Of a DNA stretch of 64,000 bases, positions 3,416 through 19,866 are shown one piece after another. A program made the position numbers and the translations under genes. Positions within the stretch are counted from its first letter, which is position 1, and every line of letters begins with the position of its first letter. The DNA is from Acidobacteriota bacterium. Lineage in GTDB: Bacteria > Acidobacteriota > Vicinamibacteria > Vicinamibacterales > CAVVIG01. The stretch covers positions 1,643 through 65,642 of the forward strand of contig JBDTVS010000181.1 of assembly GCA_040007095.1 (NCBI GenBank), read 5' to 3'. The notes below the pieces were generated by a model that made no database searches, had not been told where the DNA came from, and saw nothing but the letters and a program-made list of their open reading frames with translations.

Positions 3416-4474
3416 TCAGTTTTCGATCCGTTCCCGCCACAACCCCAGCGCCTTCTGTACCGGGCGATCGGAAAAACTGAACAGGACGACATCGTCCTGC
3501 GCGTGGTGGGACACGGGAGCCCACGACGGGGCAACGAAGACATCGCGCGCCTGCCACGACAAGGTCGTTTCGCCGATGCGGCTCTGCCCGCGTCCTTCGA
3601 TCACGTGATAGACCGTGGCGTCGGTCGAGCGGAACCCGGTGCCTGAGAATCCCCCGGGAAGGAACTGGAGAAACGCTCCGATCGTCGGCATCGGATAGCC
3701 TCCCGTCGCGGGATTCACGAACTGCATCTTGATTCCGTGCGCCGGGTCGAGCGGGCCGTGCCTGTGCATGCGATCGAGCGTCTCGCGGCTTCGCGCGTAG
3801 GGATACGTGAACAACGGCGAGGATTTGCGGTCGGGTGTGTACTCGAGCGGTAACAGGTTTGCGCCGAAGCGGTTCAGCGAGTCGCCCTCGATCTTCGACA
3901 CCGGCTGCATGGTCTCCGGATGATGCTCGGCGAATCCAGAGTCGAACATGTTGACAATCGGGATGTCGAGGCCATCCAGCCACACGACAGGGTCGTTGCC
4001 CGGATTGCCGTGATCGTGGTACGTCCATGATGGCGTCAGAATGAAGTCTCCTGGGTGCATCGTCGTACGCTCGCCATCCACCGCGGTGTAGGCGCCCTGA
4101 CCCTCGATGACCAGCCGGAGCGCGGCCGCCGTATGGCGGTGGGTGCGCGCGACTTCGCCGGGCAGAATGAGCTGCAGCCCGGCGTACAGACTCTGCGTGA
4201 TCCGTGACGCACCCGCGAGACCGGGATTTTCGAGGATGATGACGCGTCGTTCGGCCTCCTCGGCAGTGATGAGGCGACCGGCTTCCATCAGCAGAGGCCG
4301 AAGTTCCTCGTACCGCCAGATCGCCGCCACACACGGCGTCTGGGGCTCGCGGGGCACAATCGATCCCAGCACGTTCCACAAGGGCGCGGCGTTCTTCTCG
4401 CCGAGCCGACCGTTGAAGGCCTCCCGCTCTGGAGTGCTGGTGGGCTTGACGTAGAACGTCGACGGCGTTTCCAT
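3416..4474 (-). CDS. gtdA: Gentisate 1,2-dioxygenase (bicupin)
   Basis: Motifs [66 protein letters not shown]. Confidence 0.92.
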
Positions 4475-4630
4475 GGGCGATCCTTCGGATGGCTGACGGA
4501 TTGACCGAGCGGCTTTGGTCTCAGCGAACTGCGCCCCGCGAAAGCACGAAGCCTCGAAGTCAATCGATCAGGACGTGGTGTCCGTGTTTTCGGGTTGCAC
4601 TTGGCGTCTGCAAACGCGCGGAACCGGCCA

Positions 4631-5503
4631 CTACTGCTCCACGAGATCCGCCGCTCGCACCGCCACCTGCATGGCGCCGACTCCCTCTATGCTAGCCGTA
4701 ATCTGATCGCCGGGCTGGATCGGCCCGACGCCTTCGGGTGTGCCCGTGAAGATCACATCGCCGGGATGCAAGGTGTAGAAAGACGACGCGAATTCGATGA
4801 GCTCGGGAACTCCCAGAATGAGGTCTCGGGTGTTCGACTGTTGACGGATCTCGCCGTTCACGGACAAATGGACGTCGAGATTGCCGGGATCCTCGAGCTC
4901 GTCGGCGGTGACCAGCCAGGGACCGAGGACACTGTAGCTGTCCACCGACTTGCGCAAGGATCGCTCTTCCGGTCCCCTGATGGTGATGTCGAGACCGATG
5001 CAGTAGCCGGCGACGTAGGCGAGCGCGTCCGCGCGCGCGACTCCGCTGGCTCGTCGTCCGATCACAAAGGCGAGCTCTACCTCATGATCGCTGCGTCGGT
5101 CGAGCTTGCGTAAAGCCACGCCTTCGCCGGCGCCACTCATCGAGCTCGTCGCTTTCAAGAAGAGACCGGCGTTTTGGATCGTGGCGATCGGCCTGTTGTG
5201 GTGAATGTCCGCGTTGGCGCGGACTTCAGCAAGGTGTTTCTGGTAGTTGACCGGCGCAGCCACGAGCTTGCCGGGGTTGGCGACGGGGCTGAGCAGCGAC
5301 ACGGCCGCCAGCGGCCGCGATGGCGCGTCGGCCGCGAGCTCGAGAATCCGCGGCCGCAAGGCGTTGAGATGCTCGATCAACACGTCGTGTCCCGGGAGTG
5401 GATACCGATAGCTCGGCAGGACATCGAGTGCCGCCGTCACATCCTGCACCGTGTCCCCGTTCACGACGCCAAGACGTCCGTTGCCGAACCGGCAAAGCCG
5501 CAT
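4631..5503 (-). CDS. Fumarylacetoacetate hydrolase family protein (likely fumaryl/maleylpyruvate hydrolase)
   Basis: Motifs DHEVELAFVIG, GLDITIRG, RKSVDSYSVLGPW, PGDVIFTGTPEGVG. Lies next to gtdA. Confidence 0.9.
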   Translation of the reverse strand: MRLCRFGNGRLGVVNGDTVQDVTAALDVLPSYRYPLPGHDVLIEHLNALRPRILELAADAPSRPLAAVSLLSPVANPGKLVAAPVNYQKHLAEVRANADIHHNRPIATIQNAGLFLKATSSMSGAGEGVALRKLDRRSDHEVELAFVIGRRASGVARADALAYVAGYCIGLDITIRGPEERSLRKSVDSYSVLGPWLVTADELEDPGNLDVHLSVNGEIRQQSNTRDLILGVPELIEFASSFYTLHPGDVIFTGTPEGVGPIQPGDQITASIEGVGAMQVAVRAADLVEQ

Positions 5504-5583
5504 ACAATATTCCGTCGTTGACGCGAACCCCTTTATACACCACTTGAAAATTCTGAGTCTTGCAGGAAGAGCGACGAGGAGCC

Positions 5584-6957
5584 ATGGCTGATCAAAGTTT
5601 AGAAGACGTGTTGCAGCAGAGCGGGAACCCGGTGGAGTTGCTGAGGAATTCGCAGATCGGCCCGTATGCCTTTCCAGTGGTGCCGGCCGAGTTCACGAAT
5701 TGGCGGGATGAACAGCGGTCGTGGCGGGAGACGTGCGCCCTGTTCGACCAGTCTCACCACATGACGGATCTCTACGTCGAAGGTCCCGATGCGCTCAAAG
5801 TGTTTTCCGCTCTCGGCATCAATAGCTTCAAGAACTTCAAGGTCAATCAGGCCAAGCAATTCGTCGCCTGCAATCACGAAGGCCATGTGATCGGCGATGC
5901 GATTCTGTTTTATCTGGAAGACGGCAGATTGAGTCTCGTCGGCCGACCTTCGGCCATCAATTGGGTCCAATACAACATCGAGACCGGCGGCTACGCGGCC
6001 TCGGCGGAGCGAGACGAGCGGTCGGCCGTCAACAAGGGCACGCGAAAATTCTTCCGCTACCAGGTGCAGGGGCCGAACGCCCTCAAGGTGATGGAGAAGG
6101 TGCTGGGCAAACCGGCTCCCGACATCAAGTTCTTCAACATCAGCGGAATCGCCGTTGCGGGCCGGGAGATCCAGGCCTTGCGTCACGGCATGGTTGGGCA
6201 GCCGGGATGGGAACTGTTTGGCCCGTGGGAATACGGGAACGAGGTCAAGAGCGCGATTGTCGCCGCCGGCCAGGAGTACGGGATTCGCCAGGTGGGTGCG
6301 AGAACATACCCGACCAGCTGCCTTGAATCCGGCTGGATTCCCTCGCCTTTGCCCGCCGTTTACGTGGGTGACGAGTTGAAAGCCTACAGGCAGTGGCTGA
6401 GCTCGAAAAGCTACGAAGCCATGGCGTCACTCGGCGGCAGCTTCCACTCCGACAAGATCACCGACTACTACTTGACGCCCTACGACCTCGGCTATGGGCC
6501 GTTCGTCAAGTTCGATCATGAATTCGTGGGAAGAGCCGCCCTCGAGAAGATCGCCGAGAAGCCGAAGCGGAAGAAGGTGACGATTGTCTGGAATGGCGAC
6601 GATATCGCCAAGGCGTTCGGTTCCTTGTTTCATGTCGGCGGCGACGCCACCAAGTACATCGACCTGCCCCTCGCCAACTATGCGACGTTGCCGTACGACA
6701 AGCTGTTGAAAGACGGGAAGATCGTCGGCCTCTCGACCTATACCGGCTACACCTACAACGAACGCGCGATGGTTTCGCTCGGGATCGTCGATATCGAACA
6801 CAGCGAGCCCGGCACCGAAGTCACGCTGGTGTGGGGTGAGGACGGGCGCGGTTCGACGAAACCGACGGTGGAGCGTCACGCGCAGATGGAAATTCGCGCG
6901 ACGGTGGCGCCGGTCCCCATCGCCGAAGTCGCCCGCACTGCCTATCGACCACGATGA
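5584..6957 (+). CDS. ligM: THF-dependent aryl methyl ether O-demethylase (LigM/DesA/Dmt type, aminomethyltransferase family)
   Basis: GAGGA RBS before ATG 5584. Motifs WRDEQRSW, LFDQSHHM, YQVQGPNA, LESGWIPSPLPAVY, TPYDLGYG, VTLVWGE match LigM-family proteins. Confidence 0.88.
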   Translation: MADQSLEDVLQQSGNPVELLRNSQIGPYAFPVVPAEFTNWRDEQRSWRETCALFDQSHHMTDLYVEGPDALKVFSALGINSFKNFKVNQAKQFVACNHEGHVIGDAILFYLEDGRLSLVGRPSAINWVQYNIETGGYAASAERDERSAVNKGTRKFFRYQVQGPNALKVMEKVLGKPAPDIKFFNISGIAVAGREIQALRHGMVGQPGWELFGPWEYGNEVKSAIVAAGQEYGIRQVGARTYPTSCLESGWIPSPLPAVYVGDELKAYRQWLSSKSYEAMASLGGSFHSDKITDYYLTPYDLGYGPFVKFDHEFVGRAALEKIAEKPKRKKVTIVWNGDDIAKAFGSLFHVGGDATKYIDLPLANYATLPYDKLLKDGKIVGLSTYTGYTYNERAMVSLGIVDIEHSEPGTEVTLVWGEDGRGSTKPTVERHAQMEIRATVAPVPIAEVARTAYRPR

Positions 6958-7144: not shown

Positions 7145-9076
<1,932 letters not shown>

Positions 9077-9086
9077 TCAGCAGATT

Positions 9087-9701
9087 CTACTTCGGGGGCG
9101 CTCCAGCGGGCGGCATCGGATCGGGCACGTGATTCTTGATCGGGGGAATCGTCAGCAGATAGGCGTAGATGGCTTTGAGATCGCTCTCGCTCAGCTGGCC
9201 GTACCAGTACCACGGCATCGGCGGCAGGATGTCGCGGGCCGTTCCAAAGTGCTTGCCCGATTTCAGGGCCTTGACGAAGAGCTCTTCGGTCCAGACGCCA
9301 GAGGTAATGCCGGTGTCCTTGTCGGGCGTCAGGTTGGCCGCGAAGGAGACACCCCACGGTCCCGACCACGCCGTCAGCGTACCGGTGATCCCAATCTCCC
9401 ATTGACTGCCTTTGGCCGGCGTGTACGGCCGGGCGACCTTGATGTTCTCTGGATGGCCGGCCAGCATCATGCTCATGTCCGGCTCCGGGCCGTTGGGGCC
9501 GATCTTCTTGGTCGTGTGGCAATCGTGGCATCCGCCCCCGATCACCAGCATGTGTCCGCGCTCGGCCGGTGACGGCGCCGGAGCTGCAACGGGTGCGGCC
9601 GGGACCGGCTGACTGGCCGGCGGGGCGTTACAGGCAGACATCGCGAGGGCGATTGGCACGCTCGCCGCGAGCACGGCGAGTCGGGGCTGACGGAAGTGCA
9701 T
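9087..9701 (-). CDS. c-type cytochrome lipoprotein
   Basis: AGGAG RBS before ATG 9701, lipobox-like AMSAC, single CHDCH, ANLTPD and PPMPW (likely Met ligand). Confidence 0.85.
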   Translation of the reverse strand: MHFRQPRLAVLAASVPIALAMSACNAPPASQPVPAAPVAAPAPSPAERGHMLVIGGGCHDCHTTKKIGPNGPEPDMSMMLAGHPENIKVARPYTPAKGSQWEIGITGTLTAWSGPWGVSFAANLTPDKDTGITSGVWTEELFVKALKSGKHFGTARDILPPMPWYWYGQLSESDLKAIYAYLLTIPPIKNHVPDPMPPAGAPPK

Positions 9702-9904
9702 GAAACTCTCCTGTTGGGCTTGGCAGCCAGTAGTAAATGATGCGAACTGGGTTGAAACGCTGGAACTATACAACAGCTGTCGGCGTTGCGTCTGCGGCTG
9801 TGGGCACCGGTCGCGAGTCAGTTCCACTGCAACCACCGAGGCGTCATGTGCGGGGGCGCACCCCGTCGCATGAAAACGTGAGCGCAGGCGCTCACAACGT
9901 ATTG

Positions 9905-9931
9905 ACGCAGAGCACGCAGAGATCGCAGAGC
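9905..9931. repeat. Nonamer tandem repeat (ACGCAGAGN x3)
   Basis: acgcagagc-acgcagaga-tcgcagagc in an intergenic region. Confidence 0.7.
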
Positions 9932-10106
9932 GATCTGATTCTTCACGAATGGAGCGCTGGATTCGTGCCAAGCTCGACCTGTCGACGCGCTTTTGAGGAC
10001 CGGCTTCGGGCGTATACTCATCGGCGTTCGAGACAGGAACACGCGCTCGTCACCCAGGGGCATTGGACCCACGAGGGCTGTTGAGGCTTTGGGATAAGGA
10101 GTTGCC

Positions 10107-11519
10107 ATGAAGATTCGTGCGTCGGTTGTCGGGGCCCTCATTGTCGTCGGCGCCGTTGGCGGGGCCGTTGTCGGGCCTCACGCGCAGCAGCCGCCTGCAC
10201 CCGCAGCCGGAGGTCGGGGCCCTGCGCCGGCCGCGGGGCGAGGAGCGCCCACGGCGCCGCCCGGAATCAACTGGCCGTCCCCGCCGCTGCCCGACGGTCC
10301 GATCCTCGAAGACACCGGCATCGTCCACCAGATTCGGATCGTGCCGACCAAGGGCCTCAACAACCCGTGGGCCTCGGCATTTCTGCCGGATGGCAGCATC
10401 CTCGTGACTGAGCGTCCCGGCTGCCTGCGAATCATCAGGAACGGCGTGCTCGACCCGCAGCACGTCACCGGTTTGCCAGCAATTCAAGCCGCCGGCCTCG
10501 CGGGTCTGATGGACATTGCGCTGCACCCGCGCTTCGGTGAAAACCAGTGGGTCTATCTGACGTACCACAAACCAGCGGCCGGCAACCCAGGCACGAGCGG
10601 CGCACTCCAATCGAGCGGACGCTGCAGTCCGCCAGACGAAGGCCGCGGTGCGAATGCCGGCGGCGGTCGCGGGGGCGCCGGCGGCGGTCCGGGGACGATC
10701 ACGCTCGCGCGGGGACGCTGGAATGGGACCGGCCTCGTCGACGTGAAAGACCTGTTCACGGCGATCCCGTCGGGGAACGCGTCGCGAATCGTTTTCGGCA
10801 AAGACGGTATGGTCTACATGACCGTCGGCTTTGGCGACATTCCTCCTCCGTACGTGAACGCCGCCGCGGCGGCGCCGCAGGATCCCAATAACCTTGCTGG
10901 AAAGGTGCTTCGCTTGAAAGACGACGGCACGGTGCCGTCGGATAATCCGTTCGTGGGTCGCACCGGCTACCGTCCGGAGATCTTCACGATGGGACATCGC
11001 AACTCGCTCGGACTGACCATGCAGCCCGATACCGGAGCCATCTGGGAATCGGAGAATGGTCCAAACGGCGGCGACGAGGTCAACCTTCTGCAGGCGGGAA
11101 AAAACTACGGATGGCCGATCGTCAGCTACGGGCGGTTCTACCTCGGGCCTCGCGTGAGCACCAAAGCGTGGCAGGAGGGGATGGAAGATCCGATGGTCTT
11201 CTGGGTGCCCGCGATCGCCACGTCCGGCTTGACGTTCTACACCGGCGACCGGTTCCCGCAGTGGAAGGGCAACCTCTTTGCCGGCGGCATGCGGCAGGGC
11301 GAGGTTCCGCGTTCCGGTCATCTCGAGCGGATCGACTTCAACGACAAATGGGAAGAGCTGCACCGCGAGTCGTTCCTCCGCGAGCTGCAACAGCGCATTC
11401 GCGACGTGCGCCAAGGTCCGGACGGCCTGTTGTATGTGTTGACCGCCGAGGCCGACGGCGCGCTGCTTCGGATCGAACCCGCGCCCGCGCCCGTCGCGGC
11501 CGGCCGGGGGAGTCGGTGA
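10107..11519 (+). CDS. PQQ-dependent sugar dehydrogenase (glucose/sorbosone dehydrogenase family), exported
   Basis: AAGGAG RBS. Motifs PWASAFLPDG, GLMDIALHP, GHRN, NGGDEVN, NYGWP, RIRDVRQGPDGLLYVLT. Confidence 0.92.
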   Translation: MKIRASVVGALIVVGAVGGAVVGPHAQQPPAPAAGGRGPAPAAGRGAPTAPPGINWPSPPLPDGPILEDTGIVHQIRIVPTKGLNNPWASAFLPDGSILVTERPGCLRIIRNGVLDPQHVTGLPAIQAAGLAGLMDIALHPRFGENQWVYLTYHKPAAGNPGTSGALQSSGRCSPPDEGRGANAGGGRGGAGGGPGTITLARGRWNGTGLVDVKDLFTAIPSGNASRIVFGKDGMVYMTVGFGDIPPPYVNAAAAAPQDPNNLAGKVLRLKDDGTVPSDNPFVGRTGYRPEIFTMGHRNSLGLTMQPDTGAIWESENGPNGGDEVNLLQAGKNYGWPIVSYGRFYLGPRVSTKAWQEGMEDPMVFWVPAIATSGLTFYTGDRFPQWKGNLFAGGMRQGEVPRSGHLERIDFNDKWEELHRESFLRELQQRIRDVRQGPDGLLYVLTAEADGALLRIEPAPAPVAAGRGSR

Positions 11520-11523
11520 CTTC

Positions 11524-11565
11524 GAGTCTCAAGTCTGAAGTCTGAAGTCTCAAGTCTGAGGTCTG
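11524..11565. repeat. Heptamer tandem repeat (AAGTCTG x6)
   Basis: gagtctc-aagtctg-aagtctg-aagtctc-aagtctg-aggtctg. Confidence 0.9.
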
Positions 11566-11794
11566 CACGAAGAACTCACTGGAGAATTCTCCGTCGAGCC
11601 GGCGACGCTGCCGTCGCTCGGATTCGACTGAGTTCCGCCTGAAATCCGGGTCCGCTCGCGCCCTTCCATTTCCGATCGGACGATGCTACCGTCGTCGCCT
11701 TGCGACTCGGTCGATGAGTCGGCACGCGCTTCGCAGATGAGAACCTCGATAGCCGGCGGCAACGGGTGAACGAACCGCCTGGCGAGGAGGCGAC

Positions 11795-12082
11795 GTGGCG
11801 CAGAAATCCCTCGAAAGACGTGTGGAAGTGCTGGAAAAGCGAGTCGACATCCTGGAGCAACTTCCCGAGCGGGTCCGGGCCGTCGAGTTGCAGATTGTGC
11901 AACTTCGCGAGGACCTCCGCGGTGAATTTTCTGCGCTCCGCGCGGAGATTCGTGCAGGCGACGAAGACACGCGGAGGGTGCTACGCGACGAGATGCGCGA
12001 GCTCTTTGCCGATAATCAGCGCCAGATGAGGATCCTGCACGAAGACGTGATTGCACGCATCGCGACGATTCGGCAGGGCTGA
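11795..12082 (+). CDS. Small coiled-coil hypothetical protein
   Basis: GAGGAGG RBS + GTG start, heptad pattern LERRVEVLEKRVDILE...LREDLRGEFSALRAEIR. Confidence 0.75.
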   Translation: MAQKSLERRVEVLEKRVDILEQLPERVRAVELQIVQLREDLRGEFSALRAEIRAGDEDTRRVLRDEMRELFADNQRQMRILHEDVIARIATIRQG

Positions 12083-12177
12083 CCGGTCGGCGCGTTGGAC
12101 GATCCTGCTCGAGGTGGATCGCGGTCACTTTCAGGCTGCCGGCACGAAGCCACCAACGGCGGATATAATCCCTCCCC

Positions 12178-13326
12178 GTGACACAAGGTCCCCCATTTCG
12201 TGCCGAGCATGTCGGCAGCCTGCTCCGTCCTGAAACGCTCCTCAAAGCGCGCGCCGCCGCGGAGGGCGATCAGTACCGCCGCTCCAGCGGCCCACTCACG
12301 TACACGCAGCTGAAAGAGATTGAAGACGAGGCGATCCGCGACGTCGTGCGCCTGCAGGAGGATGTCGGTCTGCAGGTCGTGACCGACGGCGAGTTTCGCC
12401 GCCGCTCCTGGTTTCAGGATTTCATCCTGTCGTTGACAGGTACCGACATCACCTTTGTCGAGTCGTCGCAGACGGTGTCGGCGGCGTTGCCGTTTCAGGA
12501 CGACGCCACCATCGAGAAGCTCCCCGGCCATATCGTGCGGGTCACCAAGAAACTGGCGCGGGAGAAGGGCATCTTCACCGAACATTTTGCCTTCCTGAAG
12601 AATCTGACGAATCAAACGCCCAAGATCAGCCTGCCGTCGCCGAGCATGCTGCATTTCTGGGGAGGCCGGGCGGCCATCGACGCGGCGGTCTACCCGGATC
12701 TCGCCGAATTCTGGGAGGACGCCGTCAACATCTGGGTCGCCGAGATCAAGGCGCTGTATGCATTGGGCTGCCGTTACATCCAGATCGACGATGTGACTTT
12801 TCCGCTGATCTGCGATCCGAACGGTCAAGCGGCGCTGCGCCAGCGTGGCGACGATCCGGCCGAAATCCTGAGCACGTATGCGGGCGTCCTGACGCGGATC
12901 GCCGCCGGTGCGCCCGCCGACATGACGATCGGCATGCACATGTGCCGCGGAAACAACCGCGGAAAGTGGATGGGCAGCGGCGGATACGAGTACGTCAGCG
13001 AGGTGGTGTTCCGCCAGGTCGGCATCGCCAACTACTTCATGGAGTACGACAGCGATCGTGCCGGCGATTTCGCGCCGCTGCGCCACGTTCCGGCGGGCAA
13101 GCGGGTCATCCTCGGCCTGGTCTCGTCGAAAACGCCCGTGCTCGAGTCCCGCGACCTGCTCAAGCGCCGCATCGACGCCGCGGCGAAATACCTGCCGCTC
13201 GAACAGTTGTGTCTGAGTCCGCAGTGCGGCTTTGCCAGCAACTTCATGGGCAACCCGGTGACCGCCGACGATCAGCGCCGTAAGCTCGAACTGGTCGTCG
13301 AAACCGCCCGGGAAGTCTGGGGATGA
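12178..13326 (+). CDS. Cobalamin-independent methionine synthase II family protein (short single-barrel MetE-like, YxjH type)
   Basis: Motifs FRAEHVGSLLRP, TDGEFRR, HMCRGN (Zn His/Cys), EYDSDRAGDF, LSPQCGFAS. Confidence 0.9.
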   Translation: MTQGPPFRAEHVGSLLRPETLLKARAAAEGDQYRRSSGPLTYTQLKEIEDEAIRDVVRLQEDVGLQVVTDGEFRRRSWFQDFILSLTGTDITFVESSQTVSAALPFQDDATIEKLPGHIVRVTKKLAREKGIFTEHFAFLKNLTNQTPKISLPSPSMLHFWGGRAAIDAAVYPDLAEFWEDAVNIWVAEIKALYALGCRYIQIDDVTFPLICDPNGQAALRQRGDDPAEILSTYAGVLTRIAAGAPADMTIGMHMCRGNNRGKWMGSGGYEYVSEVVFRQVGIANYFMEYDSDRAGDFAPLRHVPAGKRVILGLVSSKTPVLESRDLLKRRIDAAAKYLPLEQLCLSPQCGFASNFMGNPVTADDQRRKLELVVETAREVWG

Positions 13327-13330
13327 CGAC

Positions 13331-13540
13331 GGTCCGGCTGAAGCCGGCTACAACGGTCCGGCTGAACAATGGTCCGATTGAAGCCCGGCTGAAGCCGGAC
13401 ACTACGGACGAACCGCTGGGGCCAATCGTATGTATGGCCGCCTTTCAGACGGACCGTAGTGCCGATGGTAGGTATGGGCGCCTTCAGACCGACTGTGGTG
13501 CCGATCGTATGTAGTGTCCGCCTTCGGGCGGACCGTGGAC
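13331..13540. repeat. REP cluster (GTCCGGCTGAAGCCGGACACTAC family): forward copies followed by three reverse ~40-nt units
   Basis: Copies at 13331-13351 and 13385-13406. Tandem units at 13422-13461, 13462-13500 and 13501-13540, ending gtagtgtccgccttcgggcggacc. Confidence 0.85.
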
Positions 13541-13553
13541 CGTGGTGCACGGG

Positions 13554-14561
13554 ATGACTATGGAACTGCAGTCCCTCGGCTACGTGGGGATTCGCGCGCG
13601 CGACGTGGACGAGTGGGCGGATTTCGGCGTCAAGCTCCTCGGCATGCAGATCGTCGATCGGAGCCGTTCGACGCTGACCTTTCGCATGGACGATCGGCGC
13701 CAGCGCGTTGTCGTGCATGGTGACGGCGGTGAAGGGGCCGCGTTTCTTGGCTGGGAGGTGGCCGACGCCGCGGCGCTTGGCGCGTTGGCGGGGCGGCTCG
13801 AAGCCTCTGGCGTCGGCGTCCGGCGATTGCCGGCGGCGGTCGCCGACGAGCGGCGCGTCGCGGAGGTTCTGGCGTTCCGCGATCCGATTGGCAATACCCT
13901 CGAGGCGTTTCATGGCGCTGAAGTCGCCTCCGATCCGTTTCGGCCCGGTCGCGCCATCTCAGGGTTCCGCACCGGTCCGCTCGGCATGGGCCACGTCGTG
14001 ATGAACGTCGAGCGGATCGACGACGTGCTGCCGTTCTATCGGGACCTGCTCGGCTTCCAGCTGAGCGACTACACGCTGCGTCCGTTCAAAGCGTTCTTCT
14101 TCCATCTCAATCCCCGTCATCACAGCTTCGCGATGGTCGAGACCGGGACGAACAGCGTGCACCATGTGATGGTCGAAACTTTCATGCTGGACGACGTCGG
14201 CCAGGCCTATGACCTCGCGCAGGGGGAAGAAGGGCGCGTTGCGACCACGCTCGGCCGACACTCGAACGACTTCATGACGTCGTTCTATGCGCGCACGCCC
14301 TCTGGGTTCTTCGTCGAGTACGGCTGGGGGGGGCGATCGATTGAGCCGGCGACCCACGAGCCGGTCGAGATGACGTGCGGACCGAGCCTCTGGGGCCACG
14401 ACCGCGATTGGCTGACGGTCGAGGGGCGCGCCGAAGCTCGCGCGCTCCGGCTGCAGGCGGCCGCCGATGGGCGGCGCGAACCGGTACAGGTCCTCGACGG
14501 CAATTACGCGCTCGCGCCCGGAACCTGCGGGTGGTTCGATAACCTGCGCACCCGATCCTGA
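13554..14561 (+). CDS. Type I extradiol ring-cleavage dioxygenase (BphC/HsaC-like, VOC fold)
   Basis: Motifs SLGYVGI, FRMDDRRQR, GMGHVV, NPRHHSFA, HHVMVE, LGRHSND, SFYARTPSGFFVEYGWG. Confidence 0.92.
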   Translation: MTMELQSLGYVGIRARDVDEWADFGVKLLGMQIVDRSRSTLTFRMDDRRQRVVVHGDGGEGAAFLGWEVADAAALGALAGRLEASGVGVRRLPAAVADERRVAEVLAFRDPIGNTLEAFHGAEVASDPFRPGRAISGFRTGPLGMGHVVMNVERIDDVLPFYRDLLGFQLSDYTLRPFKAFFFHLNPRHHSFAMVETGTNSVHHVMVETFMLDDVGQAYDLAQGEEGRVATTLGRHSNDFMTSFYARTPSGFFVEYGWGGRSIEPATHEPVEMTCGPSLWGHDRDWLTVEGRAEARALRLQAAADGRREPVQVLDGNYALAPGTCGWFDNLRTRS

Positions 14562-14681
14562 TGTCGACGTTCAGGAAGCACAACGACCGCAGCGATCACG
14601 GAAGCCGGTTCTTTGTGCCCTTTGTGGTTCATCATCTAATCCGCAACCTGCTCTGAGCGGTTATCAATCTGGGGGTTCAAC

Positions 14682-16043
14682 ATGGCGGCGCCGCGGACCG
14701 TGGTCAAGATCGCCGAAGTGATCGACAACGCGCAGGTGGGGAGGCTCCAGATCAGCCTCTTCATGCTGTGTGCTGCCTGCCTCATTCTTGACGGCTTCGA
14801 CGTCCAGGTGGTTGGCTACGTCGCGCCGACGATCTTCCAGGAATGGGGCGTTCCGCGCTCGGTGCTGGGCAACGTGCTGGCCGCGGGCAATTTCGGCGTC
14901 CTGCTGGGCTCGCTGGTGTTCACGATGGTCGCCGACAAGGTCGGGCGTCGGCCGGTACTGCTGTGGGCGACGGTGTTCTTTTCGCTGTTGACGCTTGTGA
15001 CGGCGCAGGTGACGTCGGTGCAGCAGCTCACCATCGTTCGCTTCATCGCGGGCATCGGCCTCGGGTGCATCATCCCCAACGCGACGGCCCTGATCGGCGA
15101 ATACAGCCCGCGCCGCCTGCGCATCACGTTCATGGCCTGCATCTCGGTGGGATTCACCGCCGGGGGGGCACTGGCGGGCTTTGTGTCGGCGTGGTTGATT
15201 CCGGCGTTCGGCTGGCGCGCGGTGTTCTATTTCGGCGGCGTGACCCCACTGGTGATTGCGGCGTTCATGTTCGTCGGGCTCCCAGAGTCGCTCCAATTTC
15301 TGGTGCTCCGGCGCGGCGACCGCCAGAAAGTGGCGCACTGGCTTCGCCGCATCGATCCCAGCGTGGCGACAGGTCCGCAGGTCGAGTTCGTGGTCCAGGA
15401 AGAAAACAAGTCCGGTGTCCCGGCGTTCCATCTGTTCAGGGAAGGCCGGGGAGCGACGACGCTGTTGTTGTGGCTCATCAACTTCATGAACATCTACAAC
15501 CTGTACTTGCTGTCGGGGTGGCTGCCGACCATCGCCGGTCAGCTTGGCTATTCGGCCCAGACCAGCGTGCTCATCGGCACGACACTGCAAGTGGGTGGCA
15601 CGCTCGGCACCTTCTGGCTGACATGGTTCATCGGCAAGTGGGGATTCATCCCCGTGCTGACGACCTGCTTCCTGGTGGCGTCGGCGAGCATCGCGGCGAT
15701 CGGCCAGCCCGGTCTTGCGCTCTGGGTGCTGGTCACCACCGTGTTCGTCGCCGGGTCGTGCGTCGTCGGCGGACAACCGACGGTCAATTCCATGGCGGCC
15801 GTGTACTACCCGACGTATCTGCGTTCGACCGGCATTGGCTGGTCGCTGGGGATTGGCCGTGCCGGAGCGATTCTGGGACCATGGCTGGTGGGGCGCTTCG
15901 TCGCGGCGAATTGGTCGGTGCAGGACATTCTGTATTCCGCCGCGATTCCAGCGCTGGTGTCGGCGCTCGCGATGTTCTGCCTGCACTGGGTGATGAAGCC
16001 GCAGCAGCAGGCTCCTGCTGCGCCGGTGGTGATCGCGCACTAG
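14682..16043 (+). CDS. MFS aromatic acid:H+ symporter (PcaK/GenK/MhpT family)
   Basis: Motifs LILDGFD, ADKVGRRP, EYSPRRLR, YYPTYLRSTGIGW, about 12 hydrophobic segments. Confidence 0.92.
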   Translation: MAAPRTVVKIAEVIDNAQVGRLQISLFMLCAACLILDGFDVQVVGYVAPTIFQEWGVPRSVLGNVLAAGNFGVLLGSLVFTMVADKVGRRPVLLWATVFFSLLTLVTAQVTSVQQLTIVRFIAGIGLGCIIPNATALIGEYSPRRLRITFMACISVGFTAGGALAGFVSAWLIPAFGWRAVFYFGGVTPLVIAAFMFVGLPESLQFLVLRRGDRQKVAHWLRRIDPSVATGPQVEFVVQEENKSGVPAFHLFREGRGATTLLLWLINFMNIYNLYLLSGWLPTIAGQLGYSAQTSVLIGTTLQVGGTLGTFWLTWFIGKWGFIPVLTTCFLVASASIAAIGQPGLALWVLVTTVFVAGSCVVGGQPTVNSMAAVYYPTYLRSTGIGWSLGIGRAGAILGPWLVGRFVAANWSVQDILYSAAIPALVSALAMFCLHWVMKPQQQAPAAPVVIAH

Positions 16044-16339
16044 ACCTTCTCAAGCCAGAGTCTCGCAAGATGAAGCACGTTGTGCTCGGTTCGGCTTTGG
16101 AAGCTGTCTGAGTTGCGGCCGCTGAGCGGCCGCCTCGTGAAGATTCGCCGCACCCTGGTCCGTTCTGGCTGGTCGGTTTGAGGCGAAGCTTCACTGACAG
16201 CCCGTGGTCCCGCGTCGCATCGAGACGGGCGAGGCGCGCTGGAAAACTCTCGGCGGCCGCCGCGAAGATCGCGGCTCGTTCGCTCAAAAACCGCCGCGAG
16301 TAACCTGCGTTAAGCACGTCGCGCGACGTCGTGCAAGTG

Positions 16340-16369
16340 TTGACGTCGTGATTCGCCTTGGGGTAGCAT
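16340..16369 (+). promoter_or_regulatory. Sigma70-type promoter for the second MetE-like gene
   Basis: TTGACG-N18-TAGCAT, preceded by the perfect palindrome acgtcgcgcgacgt (16316-16329). Confidence 0.55.
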
Positions 16370-16392
16370 CCTTCGGTTTCAGTCAGCTTCGC

Positions 16393-16481
16393 CATTCAGA
16401 CAACGCCGAGTGCCAAACCCAGGCGCCCGGCTGTCAATTGCTGGCAGATCGACACACCGAAAAACAGAGGACCTCTGAATG
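16393..16481 (+). promoter_or_regulatory. Structured 5' leader with alternative pairings over RBS and start codon (candidate translational switch)
   Basis: Hairpin at 16399-16435. cattcaga (16393-16400) is complementary to tctgaatg (16474-16481). A cagag/ctctg mini-hairpin covers the RBS. Confidence 0.4.
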
Positions 16482-17588
16482 ACAACGAAGATCGTCGACA
16501 CCATTCTTCCCACGACCATGGTGGGATCCTATCCCCGGCCCCACTGGTTCAAGCACCAGTTGCTCGGTCGCGACATTCAGGTCGCGTTCAAGGAAGTTCA
16601 ACACGAAGAGGCGTACGTCGACGCCGTGGCGACCGTCATCCGCGATCAGGAAGAAGCGGGCCTCGACATCGTGACCGACGGCAACATGTGGTACGACGAC
16701 TACGTCGGCGTCATCGGTTCGTTTTGCTGGTACATGTACGAGCGGATCGGCGGCTTCGAGCAAGCCAGGGAGCCGCATCCGTCGTATGCCGATTCTACCG
16801 ATGAGAGTCTGGGGAGAGACCTCCTCGACGACTGGGGTGGCGTCATCAACAGCGGGCCGGTAACCCACGGGCCCCTCCGCCTCGCCGATCTCTACAAGAT
16901 TGCCAAGAAGCATGCGCACGTCCCGGTGAAGGTGTCGGTCGGGGCCGGCCCCGCGAACCTTGCCTGGCATGCGTACTTCAAGCACTACAAGAACGCGAAG
17001 GAACTGAGCCTCGCGCTGGCGCCAATCTTCAACGCCGAGATGAAATCGCTGGTCAAGGCGGGCGCCAAGTACCTGCAGTTCGAAGACCTCGGTGCGTGGC
17101 TGCCGCTGTTCACCGGCGACAAGAACGACTACACGTGGATCAAGGACGTCGTCGCTCGGTGCTGCGACGGCGTGGACGCCACGATTGGCTGGCACTTCTG
17201 TTACGGGAATGCCTGGGGCAACGACATTCTGAGCGCCAGTTTTCCCGAGGGCTACCAGACGGTCCTTCCTCATTTCTTCGACACCCCCGGCATCGACGGG
17301 TTCGTGCTCGACTACGCGAATCGCGACATGGCCGGCATCGAGTTCATGAAGAACCTGCCAAAGGACAAACACCTCCAGGTGGGCGTCGTCGACATCCGCA
17401 CCAACGCGATGGAAACGCCGGCGCAGATTGTCGCCCGGATCAAGAAGGTGCTTGATGCCGTGCCCGCCGAGCGTGTGATTCTCAGTACGGACTGCGGCAT
17501 GAAGCCGCTCGCCCGCATGGTTGCCAAGCAGAAGCTGAGAGCGCTCAGCCAGGCCGCGCAGATCGTGCGGAAGGAGTTGGGCGCTTAG
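16479..17588 (+). CDS. MetE-like Zn thiol-alkyltransferase (methionine synthase II / epoxyalkane:CoM transferase-like)
   Basis: Motifs LPTTMVGSYPRP, RDQEEAGLDIVTDG, HFCYGN, VGVVDIR, STDCG. Confidence 0.88.
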   Translation: MTTKIVDTILPTTMVGSYPRPHWFKHQLLGRDIQVAFKEVQHEEAYVDAVATVIRDQEEAGLDIVTDGNMWYDDYVGVIGSFCWYMYERIGGFEQAREPHPSYADSTDESLGRDLLDDWGGVINSGPVTHGPLRLADLYKIAKKHAHVPVKVSVGAGPANLAWHAYFKHYKNAKELSLALAPIFNAEMKSLVKAGAKYLQFEDLGAWLPLFTGDKNDYTWIKDVVARCCDGVDATIGWHFCYGNAWGNDILSASFPEGYQTVLPHFFDTPGIDGFVLDYANRDMAGIEFMKNLPKDKHLQVGVVDIRTNAMETPAQIVARIKKVLDAVPAERVILSTDCGMKPLARMVAKQKLRALSQAAQIVRKELGA

Positions 17589-17591
17589 GGC

Positions 17592-17636
17592 CCGGGCGGG
17601 AGTAAGCCGGGCGGGAGTAGGCCGGGCGGGAGTAAG
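17592..17636. repeat. 15-bp tandem repeat x3
   Basis: ccgggcgggagtaag / ccgggcgggagtagg / ccgggcgggagtaag, directly after the stop codon. Confidence 0.9.
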
Positions 17637-17649
17637 GCTGTCAACTGTG

Positions 17650-17742
17650 GGCGTCGAGGCGCCCGCCCGACAAGGCGCGAGGAGCGCGCATACCGGGCGT
17701 ATGTAAGCGACGAGCAACGCAGCCCCGGCGGGAGTTGGAAGC
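17650..17742. repeat. Palindromic extragenic element (CAAGGCGCGAGGAGC...GAGCAACGCAG type)
   Basis: Internal catac/gtatg hairpin and gcccgcccg/cggcggg flanks. Resembles a dispersed repeat type I recall from GC-rich genomes (inference). Confidence 0.45.
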
Positions 17743-17803
17743 GGACACGTTATGCGGCGAGGACGGCTTTGAGGCCGTCCCACAACACGAGGAAACAGGA
17801 AAT

Positions 17804-18772
17804 ATGGCCGACAAGAAAATCATTGCGGTAGTGGGATCCACCGGCGCGCAGGGCGGTGGTCTGGTCGAGGCGATTCTGGCCGATCCGAATGGCGGATTCG
17901 GCGCCCGCGCGATCACGCGCGACACAGCCAAGGACAAGGCCACAGCGATCGCCGCCAAGGGCGGGGAAGTGGTCCAGGCCGATCTCGATGATGTCGAGAG
18001 CTTGAAAAAGGCGTTCGCGGGGGCATACGGCGTGTATGCCGTGACCAATTTCTGGGAGCACTTCTCCGGCGAGAAAGAAAAGACCCAGGCCAAGAACATC
18101 GCCGACGCGGCGAAGGCCGCCGGCGTCCAGCACGTGATCTGGTCGACGCTCGAAGACACGCGGACCTTGATGCAGGCCGACGACAAGCGCATGCCGATGC
18201 TGCAGGAGAAGTACCGGGTGCCGCACTTCGACGCGAAGGCCGAAGCGGACGCGTTCTTTCAGGGGGTGCCCACCACGTTCCTGGTGACGTCGTTCTACTG
18301 GGACAACCTCTATTCGTTCGGTCTCGCGCCCAAGAAAGGTGCTGACGGCCAGTACGAGTGGACGTTCCCCATGGGCGACAGCAAGCTGGCGGGCATCGCG
18401 GTCGAGGATATCGGCAAGGTCGCGTACGGGATCTTCAAGGCCGGTCAGCAGTATGTCGGCAAGACGGTGGGCATCCTGGGTGAGGCCCTGACGATCAGCG
18501 AGATGGGCGAGAAAATCTCGACCGCGATGGGCGTCGGTCCGGTCCGCTACAACGCCGTCGACGCGGACCTCTACCGCAGCTTTGGATTCCCGGGCGCGGA
18601 CGAGATGGGCAACATGTTCCAGGTGTACCGCGATTTCGCCGCCGAAGTGCTGGCGGCGCGCAGCGTGGACGTGGCGCGGCAGCTCAATCCGCAGCTTCAG
18701 AGCTTCGATCAGTTCCTCGCGAAGAACAAGAGCAAGATCGAGCCTGCGATGAATCCCGCGCCGGCACAGTAG
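17804..18772 (+). CDS. NmrA/HSCARG family NAD(P)-binding protein
   Basis: Motifs VVGSTGAQGG, AFAGAYGVYAVTNFWE, IWSTLED, PHFDAK. AGGA RBS before ATG 17804. Confidence 0.92.
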   Translation: MADKKIIAVVGSTGAQGGGLVEAILADPNGGFGARAITRDTAKDKATAIAAKGGEVVQADLDDVESLKKAFAGAYGVYAVTNFWEHFSGEKEKTQAKNIADAAKAAGVQHVIWSTLEDTRTLMQADDKRMPMLQEKYRVPHFDAKAEADAFFQGVPTTFLVTSFYWDNLYSFGLAPKKGADGQYEWTFPMGDSKLAGIAVEDIGKVAYGIFKAGQQYVGKTVGILGEALTISEMGEKISTAMGVGPVRYNAVDADLYRSFGFPGADEMGNMFQVYRDFAAEVLAARSVDVARQLNPQLQSFDQFLAKNKSKIEPAMNPAPAQ

Positions 18773-18800
18773 CATCGAGCACGCTCACAGAGCTCAGGAC

Positions 18801-18843
18801 GGGGCTCAGAGATCAGGTGCTTGTTACCCGATCGCTGAGCCCC
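18801..18843 (+). terminator. Stem-loop after the NmrA gene
   Basis: ggggctcag / ctgagcccc stem with an inner gatc pair and a weak T tail. Confidence 0.4.
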
Positions 18844-18984
18844 TTGCGTTGTCGCCCCCGGGCCGGATGCCGCTCTTGCGGCGCATTTTCACGTGCAAAT
18901 GCCACCACGACCGCACGAAGACACAGAAGAGTCATCCTGTCTTGGCTGTGGCGCCTTCATCACGGAGTACACTGACTAACCCGC

Positions 18985-19866
18985 ATGGCAAACCTCGGAT
19001 ACGTCGGCCTCGGCGCGATGGGCGGCCTCATGGCCGAGCGTCTAATCAGCAAGGGCCATTCGGTCACCGGCTACAACCGCACGAAGTCGAAGGCGCAAGG
19101 ACTCATCGACCAGGGGATGCAGTGGGCTGATTCGCCGCGCGAGGTCGCGGCGGCATCCGAGGCGACCTTCGTGATGGTGACCAATTCCGCCGCGCTCGAA
19201 GCGGTGGCCAACGGTCCCGATGGATTGCTCGCCGGACTGGGCAGCGGTAAGCTGCTCATCGACATGAGCACGGTCAGCCCGGCGGTCAGCCGCGCGTTGG
19301 CTCTGAGAGTCCGCGCCCAGGGTTCGGACATGGTGGATGCTCCTGTCTCCGGCAGCGTCGTCACGCTGCAGCAGGGCAAGTTGTCGGTGATGGTCGGCGG
19401 TGAGAAGGGCGGCTTCGATCGGGCGAAGCCGCTGCTCGACGACGTCGGACCGCGGGTGACGCACGTGGGTCCCAACGGGCTTGCACTGTCGATGAAGATC
19501 GCGATCAATCTCAGCCTGGCCGTGCAGATGCTGGCGTTCTCAGAAGGCCTGCTACTGGCGGAGAAGAGCGGCATTCCGCGCGAGGTCGCCGTCGACGTGA
19601 TGACCCACAGCGTCATCGGATCGCCGATGGTGCAATACCGGGGACCGATGGTGCTCAACATGCCGGAGGAAGCCTGGTTCGACGTCAACATGATGCAGAA
19701 AGACATGTTGCTCGCCCTCGAGATGGGCCGGCAGCTGGACGTGCCGCTCCCGACCACGGCGGTGACCAACGAGATGCTGACGGCGGCGCGGGGGATGGGG
19801 CTCGCGAAAAAGGATTTCGCAATCCTGTTCGAAGCGCTGTCGCGTATGGCAGGAGTCCAGAAATGA
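18985..19866 (+). CDS. NAD(P)-dependent beta-hydroxyacid dehydrogenase (3-hydroxyisobutyrate/tartronate semialdehyde reductase family)
   Basis: Motifs GYVGLGAMG, IDMSTVSP, DAPVSGS, MKIAIN, MMQKDM. Confidence 0.92.
   Translation: MANLGYVGLGAMGGLMAERLISKGHSVTGYNRTKSKAQGLIDQGMQWADSPREVAAASEATFVMVTNSAALEAVANGPDGLLAGLGSGKLLIDMSTVSPAVSRALALRVRAQGSDMVDAPVSGSVVTLQQGKLSVMVGGEKGGFDRAKPLLDDVGPRVTHVGPNGLALSMKIAINLSLAVQMLAFSEGLLLAEKSGIPREVAVDVMTHSVIGSPMVQYRGPMVLNMPEEAWFDVNMMQKDMLLALEMGRQLDVPLPTTAVTNEMLTAARGMGLAKKDFAILFEALSRMAGVQK

Follow-up and report, generated by a model that had tools for sequence, protein, structure and literature searches.

Short MetE homologues beside ring-cleavage genes in an acidobacterial genome: a possible role in aryl O-demethylation

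Two genes for short homologues of the methionine synthase MetE lie on either side of genes for an extradiol dioxygenase and an aromatic-acid transporter in a 64,000-nucleotide stretch of the genome of a soil bacterium of the Acidobacteriota (contig JBDTVS010000181.1; the whole stretch is hereafter called the window), and raise the question of what such enzymes do next to the cleavage of aromatic rings. O-Demethylation is a gatekeeping step in the bacterial use of lignin-derived aromatics, and the aerobic routes known to us proceed either with O2 and a Rieske or P450 system or with tetrahydrofolate (THF). The present analysis is one of comparative genomics, conducted largely on metagenome-assembled genomes (MAGs); in the window, whose GC content is ~64% and in which many spurious open reading frames (ORFs) arise, the real genes were chosen by profile searches. 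The two homologues are designated MetEA (product of 12178–13326) and MetEB (product of 16479–17588). Judged by gene content and order, the stretch is made up of two independent units, an operon-like cassette at 12178–16043 and a MetEB–NmrA pair at 16479–18772. For the cassette, the reading that we prefer, although tentatively, is that MetEA moves the methyl group of an imported methoxy-aromatic acid to homocysteine and that the dioxygenase opens the resulting catechol. The features of the two units are as follows.

12178–13326, forward strand: MetEA, single-barrel MetE homologue of the YxjG/PRK06520 type, 382 residues (PF01717, NF005085)
13542–14561, forward strand: Fe(II) type I extradiol (BphC-like) ring-cleavage dioxygenase (PF22632 and PF00903)
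14682–16043, forward strand: major facilitator superfamily (MFS) transporter, PcaK-like, similar to aromatic acid/H+ symporters (MFS_1, E-value 1.4e-43)
16340–16369, forward strand: sigma-70-like promoter match in the 436-bp gap 5′ of the MetEB gene
16479–17588, forward strand: MetEB, single-barrel MetE homologue of an uncharacterised subfamily, 369 residues (PF01717)
17735–18772, forward strand: NmrA-like NAD(P)-binding protein (PF05368, E-value 2.3e-51)

The MetEA cassette and its counterparts in other genomes

MetEA belongs to the Meth_synt_2 family (PF01717; E-value, 5.8e-14; 52.5 bits against a cut-off of 21) and is a member of the YxjG/PRK06520 subfamily by its NF005085 score (387.7 bits; cut-off, 313). 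It shares a clade with the Listeria protein in the family tree (support, 100/100) and aligns over its full length with PDB entry 1YPX (3e-78, 267 bits), which is also the best fold match (TM, 0.87) of its AlphaFold model (predicted local distance difference test score (pLDDT), 84); its match to the MesD structure 3RPD amounts to 31 bits. MetEA and MetEB, with 369–382 residues each, correspond to a single barrel as against the two barrels of the ~750-residue MetE, and neither is a member of the full-length MetE family (22–52 bits; TIGR01371 cut-off, 930). Fold searches with both models matched 1YPX, 3RPD, and the C-terminal barrels of MetE; the models confirm the fold only. The initial annotation had described two different single-barrel proteins with intact H-x-C...C zinc motifs, and this description is borne out by PF01717 and the residue map as well as by a mutual identity of ~23%, the two proteins lying on opposite sides of the family tree, in separate major clades.

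In the residue map, His254, Cys256 (in the motif H254-M-C256), Glu289, and Cys350 of MetEA correspond to the zinc ligands His641, Cys643, Glu665, and Cys726 of Escherichia coli MetE, and Ser14, Glu72, and Asp204 to its homocysteine ligands Ser433, Glu484, and Asp599. Since these seven residues are conserved, being invariant throughout the orthogroup of MetEA, we infer that MetEA binds l-homocysteine as MetE does. With the YxjG/YxjH-type "methionine synthase II" of Firmicutes (1YPX from Listeria monocytogenes; PRK06520/PRK06233), MetEA shares, besides the clade, a single barrel of ~375 residues, the zinc and homocysteine motifs, the FRR and CRGN motifs, and a family-specific loop after the strand of Asp204. 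The genetic settings are different: the Firmicute YxjG-type gene has an S-adenosylmethionine (SAM) riboswitch and stands alone, whereas the MetEA gene has no riboswitch and is placed inside an importer and ring-cleavage cassette. A literature search found no paper on the methyl donor of any YxjG/YxjH-type member and none on the MetEA-type subfamily in aromatic catabolism, in agreement with the earlier remark on the large number of short MetE homologues to which no substrate has been assigned.

The dioxygenase, the sole copy in the genome, is shown by homology to be a two-domain type I Fe(II) extradiol dioxygenase of the vicinal oxygen chelate (VOC) fold. It aligns with BphC (PDB entry 1HAN, 5e-63) and retains all the iron-binding and catalytic residues of that enzyme, His146, His195, His210, Tyr250, and Glu260 comprising the Fe triad and the catalytic His and Tyr. 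Its TIGR03213 score (275 bits) is under the equivalog cut-off of 366, and the protein is therefore not BphC itself, relative to which it also carries a C-terminal extension of ~45 residues. The closest homologues from cultured bacteria (57–58% identical) are encoded on plasmids of Martelella sp. AD-3 (L095, 6074–12344) and Pannonibacter phragmitetus (L096, 5957–10975), directly after a tripartite ATP-independent periplasmic (TRAP) transporter and before an FAH-family hydrolase; an MhpA-like hydroxylase gene stands between the dioxygenase and FAH genes in Martelella and ~3 kb upstream in Pannonibacter. In these plasmid modules the partner making the catechol is a flavin hydroxylase, whereas the window cassette has MetEA in that place, without a hydroxylase, and has no hydrolase for the ring-fission product. 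The TRAP–dioxygenase–MhpA-like–FAH modules are apparently unnamed in the record annotations.

For the transporter, the best-scoring family is TIGR00895 (aromatic acid/H+ symporter), with 351 bits below a cut-off of 418.55, and the score against the PcaK model (318 bits) is also below its cut-off. The initial description of the two MetE-like genes as flanking an extradiol dioxygenase and an aromatic-acid transporter thus agrees with the profile searches.

A scan of the GTDB species genomes gave 80 loci, onto which the window proteins were mapped. Among the loci with MetEA of at least 70% identity, 13 have a BphC-like dioxygenase gene adjoining or within ~5 kb, followed by an MFS gene in 11 of them, and the gap between the MetEA and dioxygenase genes is as small as 9–27 bp (L015, L019, and L023). 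Besides the window genome, at least 13 acidobacterial MAGs have the cassette. On a 229-kb metagenome contig this gap is 14 bp and the dioxygenase and MFS genes overlap by 4 bp; neither MetEB nor ligM is found within 10 kb of the MetEA cassette on that contig. The proteobacterial orthologues of MetEA (55–72% identical) adjoin a carboxylate importer, which is a TRAP system (DctPQM) following the MetEA gene in L024, L026, L027, L030, L031, and L053, and an ATP-binding cassette (ABC) system with a Peripla_BP_6 binding protein in L028. Small VOC proteins are encoded upstream in L026, L027, L030, and L031, a VanA-like Rieske oxygenase and a cupin dioxygenase nearby in L030 and L031, and a BphC-like dioxygenase of the window's family (60% identical) nearby in L053; a second YxjG-type paralogue often comes after the transporter in the proteobacterial loci. 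The genes of family members at 42–48% identity follow those for ABC or TctC binding proteins; in Beijerinckiaceae they have an ABC importer on one side and, on the other, pobA and a CoA-transferase gene (PF01144). The linkage of MetEA to an importer and to ring-cleavage or VOC proteins therefore holds in both Acidobacteriota and Proteobacteria, and supports a connection of MetEA with aromatic catabolism.

One of these arrangements, in an alphaproteobacterial MAG (L030, 3054–13580), is a compact cluster of genes for a cupin dioxygenase, an NMT1-like protein, a small VOC protein, a VanA-like Rieske oxygenase, the MetEA orthologue (60%), TRAP DctPQM, and a second YxjG-type paralogue. The transporter is here bracketed by two MetE-like genes, both of the A type.

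Because acidobacterial and proteobacterial MetEA differ by only ~30% and interleave in the tree (the proteins of Burkholderiales and Alphaproteobacteria in L024, L026, L028, and L053 are 70–72% identical to the acidobacterial ones in L013–L021), the comparison suggests that MetEA is an accessory gene spread horizontally between phyla. Among 251 genomes sampled evenly over the phylum, MetEA and MetEB were each found in one, the window's own, and their co-occurrence in that sample is uninformative.

Methyl transfer from methoxy-aromatic acids as a candidate function

In the reaction sequence that we tentatively favour, the aromatic-acid importer would take up a methoxylated aromatic acid, and the zinc-activated homocysteine thiolate of MetEA would itself accept the methyl group of the aryl methyl ether, with neither folate nor B12 as intermediary, to give methionine and a catechol. 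The BphC-type dioxygenase, well assigned as to its enzyme class, would then open this catechol as its presumed substrate. The position that MetEA would then hold is occupied in other clusters by a hydroxylase, VanAB, or LigM. Thiolates cleave aryl methyl ethers in a standard reaction of organic synthesis, which makes the chemistry plausible. The flux through such a pathway would be limited by the supply of homocysteine, so that the cassette may be no less a means of scavenging methyl groups for methionine and SAM than one of carbon catabolism. The proposed role is like that of the aerobic aryl O-demethylases LigM/DesA (THF), VanAB (Rieske), and the GcoAB-type P450, which convert a methoxy-phenol to a catechol for a neighbouring dioxygenase and are likewise encoded beside an importer and a dioxygenase; the fold and chemistry of these enzymes are unrelated to the zinc–thiolate SN2 reaction envisaged for MetEA, and the analogy is one of role alone. 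A broader and somewhat more doubtful possibility is that MetEA-type (YxjG/PRK06520) enzymes make up a fourth, cofactor-free class of aerobic aryl O-demethylases, acting on lignin-type methoxy-aromatic acids without folate, B12, or O2.

Several points weigh against the demethylation proposal. We know of no enzyme of the MetE fold with an aryl ether as the methyl donor. The substrates usually preferred by BphC-type enzymes are 2,3-dihydroxy compounds, a pattern not typical of lignin. The formation of one methionine per substrate molecule is awkward for high-flux catabolism and argues for methyl scavenging instead. In L030, a VanA-like oxygenase is already present beside MetEA. Homologues of MetEA on Klebsiella plasmids (44% identical) adjoin a urea-type ABC system without aromatic genes, and the plasmid contexts of distant homologues (Klebsiella, Roseinatronobacter, and Nonomuraea) are uninformative or not aromatic. 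The neighbouring genes in the fetched MAG loci were called with a home-made filter based on GC content at third codon positions (GC3). Finally, the characterised core MetEs take methylcobalamin in vitro (PMC7857596, PMC7005905).

The first alternative is that MetEA acts as an ordinary folate-independent core methionine synthase, with a corrinoid protein, S-methylmethionine, or another methylated metabolite as the donor, and owes its place in the cassette to co-regulation or chance. We regard this as unlikely. In its favour, MetEA keeps all of the homocysteine and zinc ligands, methylcobalamin serves characterised core MetEs as the methyl donor for methionine (PMC7857596), and the homologues on the Klebsiella plasmids have the setting described above. 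To these is added the regulation of the Listeria relative. In L. monocytogenes NZ_LR134399.1 (L111), a SAM riboswitch (RF00162, 76.7 bits, 3808–3905) is located directly 5′ of the YxjG-type gene (4001–5104), and because of this riboswitch the product of the YxjG-type family in Firmicutes is plausibly methionine-related. With this riboswitch serving as the positive control in the same batch, the Rfam search over 17 Gram-negative loci gave nothing above the gathering scores, and that over the window region 11400–19000 gave nothing at E ≤ 1, which indicates that no known methionine riboswitch controls the cassette genes of the Gram-negative loci. As for the possibility, named in the initial annotation as the outcome that would overturn it, that both proteins are ordinary methionine synthases under methionine control, the window and the Gram-negative loci show no riboswitch, but the Listeria relative has one.

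The core-synthase assignment would also fit a genome in which, over its 8.56 Mb, no full-length MetE was found, the sole Meth_synt_1 (PF08267) match being weak and on contig C163. There are eight short MetE-like paralogues of at least five subfamilies, and such paralogues or related genes lie on contigs C163, C213, C15, C87, C125, C76, C116, and C157. The C163 paralogue resembles the canonical core synthase in the residue map. Along with it, other candidates for methionine synthesis are one B12-binding_2 protein and a YitJ-like protein, encoded at a contig end, in which a homocysteine methyltransferase domain is fused to methylenetetrahydrofolate reductase (MTHFR); neither a MetH activation domain nor, in a tblastn search with Pantoea MesX, a MesX gene was found in it. 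What speaks against MetEA as an ordinary core synthase is that a more canonical core enzyme is available on C163 together with the YitJ-like and B12-protein set, that the gene is rare and accessory in the phylum, that neither methionine nor B12 riboswitches were seen in the 17 Gram-negative loci or the window, and that the linkage to a carboxylate importer and VOC or ring-cleavage proteins holds across phyla despite changes in gene order and transporter type.

If the demethylation proposal is correct, this zinc- and homocysteine-based route would add a new class of enzymes to those available for lignin valorisation, would let methoxy groups of plants feed directly into the methionine and SAM supply of soil bacteria, and could provide a methyl donor for the large family annotated as "cobalamin-independent methionine synthase II", including the SAM-riboswitch-controlled YxjG/YxjH of Firmicutes, for which we found none reported. 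If it is wrong, the MetEA–importer–VOC linkage and the MetEB–NmrA pair would still define two uncharacterised enzyme systems, both of which are labelled methionine synthase in current annotation.

MetEB and its NmrA-like partner

MetEB also matches PF01717 (E-value, 4e-24; 85.9 bits against the cut-off of 21), and it stays under the cut-off of every NCBIfam methionine-synthase model, reaching only 53 bits with NF005085, of which it is not a member. In the zinc site, His239 and Cys241 (in the motif H239-F-C241) and Cys339 are kept and Asp278 replaces the Glu (Glu665 of E. coli); in the homocysteine site, Ser17 is kept, with Asn69 for Glu484 and Glu202 for Asp599 (E. coli numbering). Asn69, Glu202, and Asp278 are invariant in 120 homologues. 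The ligands for the amino group of homocysteine are thus altered, and MetEB probably alkylates a thiol or nucleophile other than homocysteine. The structure model of MetEB is poor (pLDDT, 67), with 3RPD as its best fold match. In the plasmid collection, EtnE of Nocardioides JS614 gave the best match (33% identity) and adjoins etnABCD-type monooxygenase genes; MetEB and EtnE form sister clades with long branches and a support (88/90) below the starred level.

Besides the window, six syntenic MAG loci and five further neighbourhoods (L009, L101, L107, L108, and L109) have the gene for the NmrA-like protein after that of MetEB, and the partner is present in 10 of the 11 MetEB loci examined, L010 being the exception. 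The MetEB–NmrA genes in L107 are divergent from genes for a bicupin, HpaB, and a flavin reductase, and those in L109 are followed by a short-chain dehydrogenase/reductase (SDR) and two pirins. In three genomes (G258, G262, and G257), the order runs from gentisate 1,2-dioxygenase (GDO) through FAH and LigM to, farther on, MetEB–NmrA–E1alpha, the MetEA cassette being encoded at another site of the genome, and in L019 and L037 the MFS and MetEB genes are separated by further genes. The promoter match at 16340–16369 is the sole promoter-like one in 11400–19000, where about one is expected by chance. These arrangements suggest that MetEB belongs to a transcription unit apart from the first, and the pair looks like a separately conserved two-gene system of its own, whose position beside the first unit is, as far as gene order tells, lineage-specific synteny. 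The initial annotation had described the two enzymes as bracketing the ring-cleavage genes. A single bracketing system is not supported, given that MetEB–NmrA is conserved in unrelated neighbourhoods and that the MetEA cassette lies elsewhere in G258, G262, and G257. In the long-read MAGs G258 and G262, ligM and the MetEB gene appear split into two frames (L098, 10683–12057; L099, 6046–7133 and 13755–15141), which probably reflects assembly frameshifts rather than pseudogenes.

Two characterised enzymes were considered as identities for MetEB. With MesD/MesX and the core methionine synthases (3RPD), MetEB has in common a single MetE-type barrel, the zinc site, and folate independence. In place of Glu73 and Asp188, which are homocysteine ligands in 3RPD, MetEB has Asn and Glu, and Pantoea MesD has an adjacent MesX (DUF1852), which the window genome does not have. 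The MesD family is defined by at least 390 bits to ACIAD3523 (Price et al. 2021, PMC7857596), as compared with the 108 bits of MetEB to 3RPD. With this low score, changed ligands, and a genome without MesX, MetEB was rejected as a MesD. With EtnE (Nocardioides JS614 and Mycolicibacterium NBB4)/XecA, MetEB shares a single barrel, the H-x-C...C zinc site, and replaced homocysteine ligands, the substitutions being N/K/D/E in EtnE and Asn69/Glu202/Asp278 in MetEB. The neighbours of MetEB are the MFS and NmrA-like genes, without the alkene monooxygenase (etnABCD), CoA-transferase, and CoA-ligase genes of the EtnE loci. With 33% identity to EtnE and no monooxygenase nearby, MetEB was not accepted as a true epoxyalkane:coenzyme M transferase (EaCoMT), which is kept as a mechanistic analogy.

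The analogy underlies the second alternative, in which MetEA and/or MetEB would catalyse a thiol alkylation other than methyl transfer, the thiol being added in the manner of EaCoMT to an electrophile of the aromatic pathway (an epoxide, a quinone, or a ring-fission compound) and the NmrA-like protein being the dehydrogenase or reductase that follows. It is improbable as an account of both enzymes to about the same degree as the core-synthase assignment of MetEA, and it fits the MetEB–NmrA pair best. EtnE is the best characterised relative of MetEB, the amino-group ligands are replaced in both, the SDR-like NmrA partner parallels the pairing of EaCoMT with hydroxyalkyl-coenzyme M dehydrogenase, and the HpaB, flavin reductase, bicupin, and pirins near MetEB elsewhere suggest quinone or phenol chemistry. 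Against it, neither gene adjoins an alkene or arene monooxygenase gene in the window, and MetEA has the full homocysteine site that is absent from EtnE; the long branches with support below the starred level and the poor model of MetEB also count on this side.

LigM, folate genes, and the surrounding region

Upstream of the two units, and downstream of them, the window contains the following features.

3416–4474, reverse strand: GDO, divergent from ligM (TIGR02272, 538 bits, over the cut-off)
4631–5503, reverse strand: FAH-family hydrolase, divergent from ligM (PF01557)
5560–6957, forward strand: LigM/DesA-type THF-dependent aryl O-demethylase (NF047885, 618 bits, cut-off 580; NF047633, 689 bits)
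7145–11519, mixed strands: block of exported proteins (FG-GAP/ASPIC, cytochrome c, PQQ-type GSDH)
From 18985, forward strand: acetoin-dehydrogenase-like operon

The distances of ligM from the MetEA gene (5.2 kb) and the MetEB gene (9.5 kb) agree with the 5–10 kb first given. The genome has three ligM paralogues, the other two being on contigs C194 and C206. No metF or ligH had been noticed nearby, and the genome profile search likewise gave no match to MTHFR (metF) or formyltetrahydrofolate synthetase (FTHFS, ligH-type) on the window contig C181 or on the other contigs carrying the ligM paralogues; MTHFR matches were found on C116 and C135 only, and FTHFS matches on C31 and C127 only.

Co-occurrence with ligM-like genes, which the initial annotation had offered as a check, was analysed and gave a divided result. 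All 14 acidobacterial genomes with the MetEA cassette have both LigM and a MetEB orthologue, as compared with 0/11 for either in the proteobacterial genomes with MetEA orthologues and 0/21 for either in genomes of the same order without MetEA, the counts being uncorrected for phylogeny. The expected association was thus seen within Acidobacteriota, where it may be inseparable from one lineage with conserved synteny, and was absent in Proteobacteria. The full order from GDO, FAH, and LigM to MetEA, dioxygenase, MFS, MetEB, and NmrA occurs only in close relatives.

The third alternative, that one or both enzymes pass the methyl group of LigM-made 5-methyl-THF to a thiol and so regenerate THF in place of metF/ligH, is considerably less probable than the two alternatives above. 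It gains from the acidobacterial co-occurrence and the empty counts in the same order, from the location of MetEB 3–13 kb from ligM in at least nine genomes, three of them with the MetEA cassette elsewhere, and from the missing MTHFR and FTHFS matches on the ligM contigs. On the other side, those nine or more genomes belong to what is apparently one syntenic lineage and are not independent evidence, MTHFR and two FTHFS genes are present elsewhere in the genome, both proteins are without the N-terminal barrel that in MetE holds the folate (polyglutamate) tail, and no ligM lies within 10 kb of MetEB–NmrA in L009, L107, L108, and L109. By gene content, MetEA does not depend on LigM, because none of the 11 proteobacterial carriers has it, and MetEA was for this reason rejected as a general sink for the methyl-THF of LigM. 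A drain of methyl-THF by MetEA is accordingly unlikely on present gene content, and a coupling of MetEB to LigM could exist. Of the two roles first suggested, a methyl drain or an unrecognised step of aromatic catabolism, the former is unlikely for MetEA, and the latter is in keeping with its cross-phylum linkage.

That there is no functional link, and that synteny inherited among related acidobacteria has merely placed MetE-like genes of unrelated metabolism here, is about as improbable as the methyl-THF drain: the restriction of the full GDO-to-NmrA order to close relatives, the large gaps in the window from the MetEA to the MetEB gene (215, 120, and 436 bp), and the many other contexts of MetEB would fit it, but Alpha- and Betaproteobacteria show the MetEA–transporter–VOC linkage rebuilt from other transporter families and VOC proteins, L053 has it with the window's own dioxygenase family, and the junctions are tight or overlapping in several loci.

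Two minor features precede the MetEA gene. An ORF for 95 residues at 11795–12082, just upstream of it, has a coding-like GC3 and a coiled-coil-like sequence; it was assigned to no family, and the other loci do not conserve it. Just after the stop codon of the GSDH gene, at ~11525–11565, there is a short run of tandem units of the GTCTGA/AGTCTCA type.

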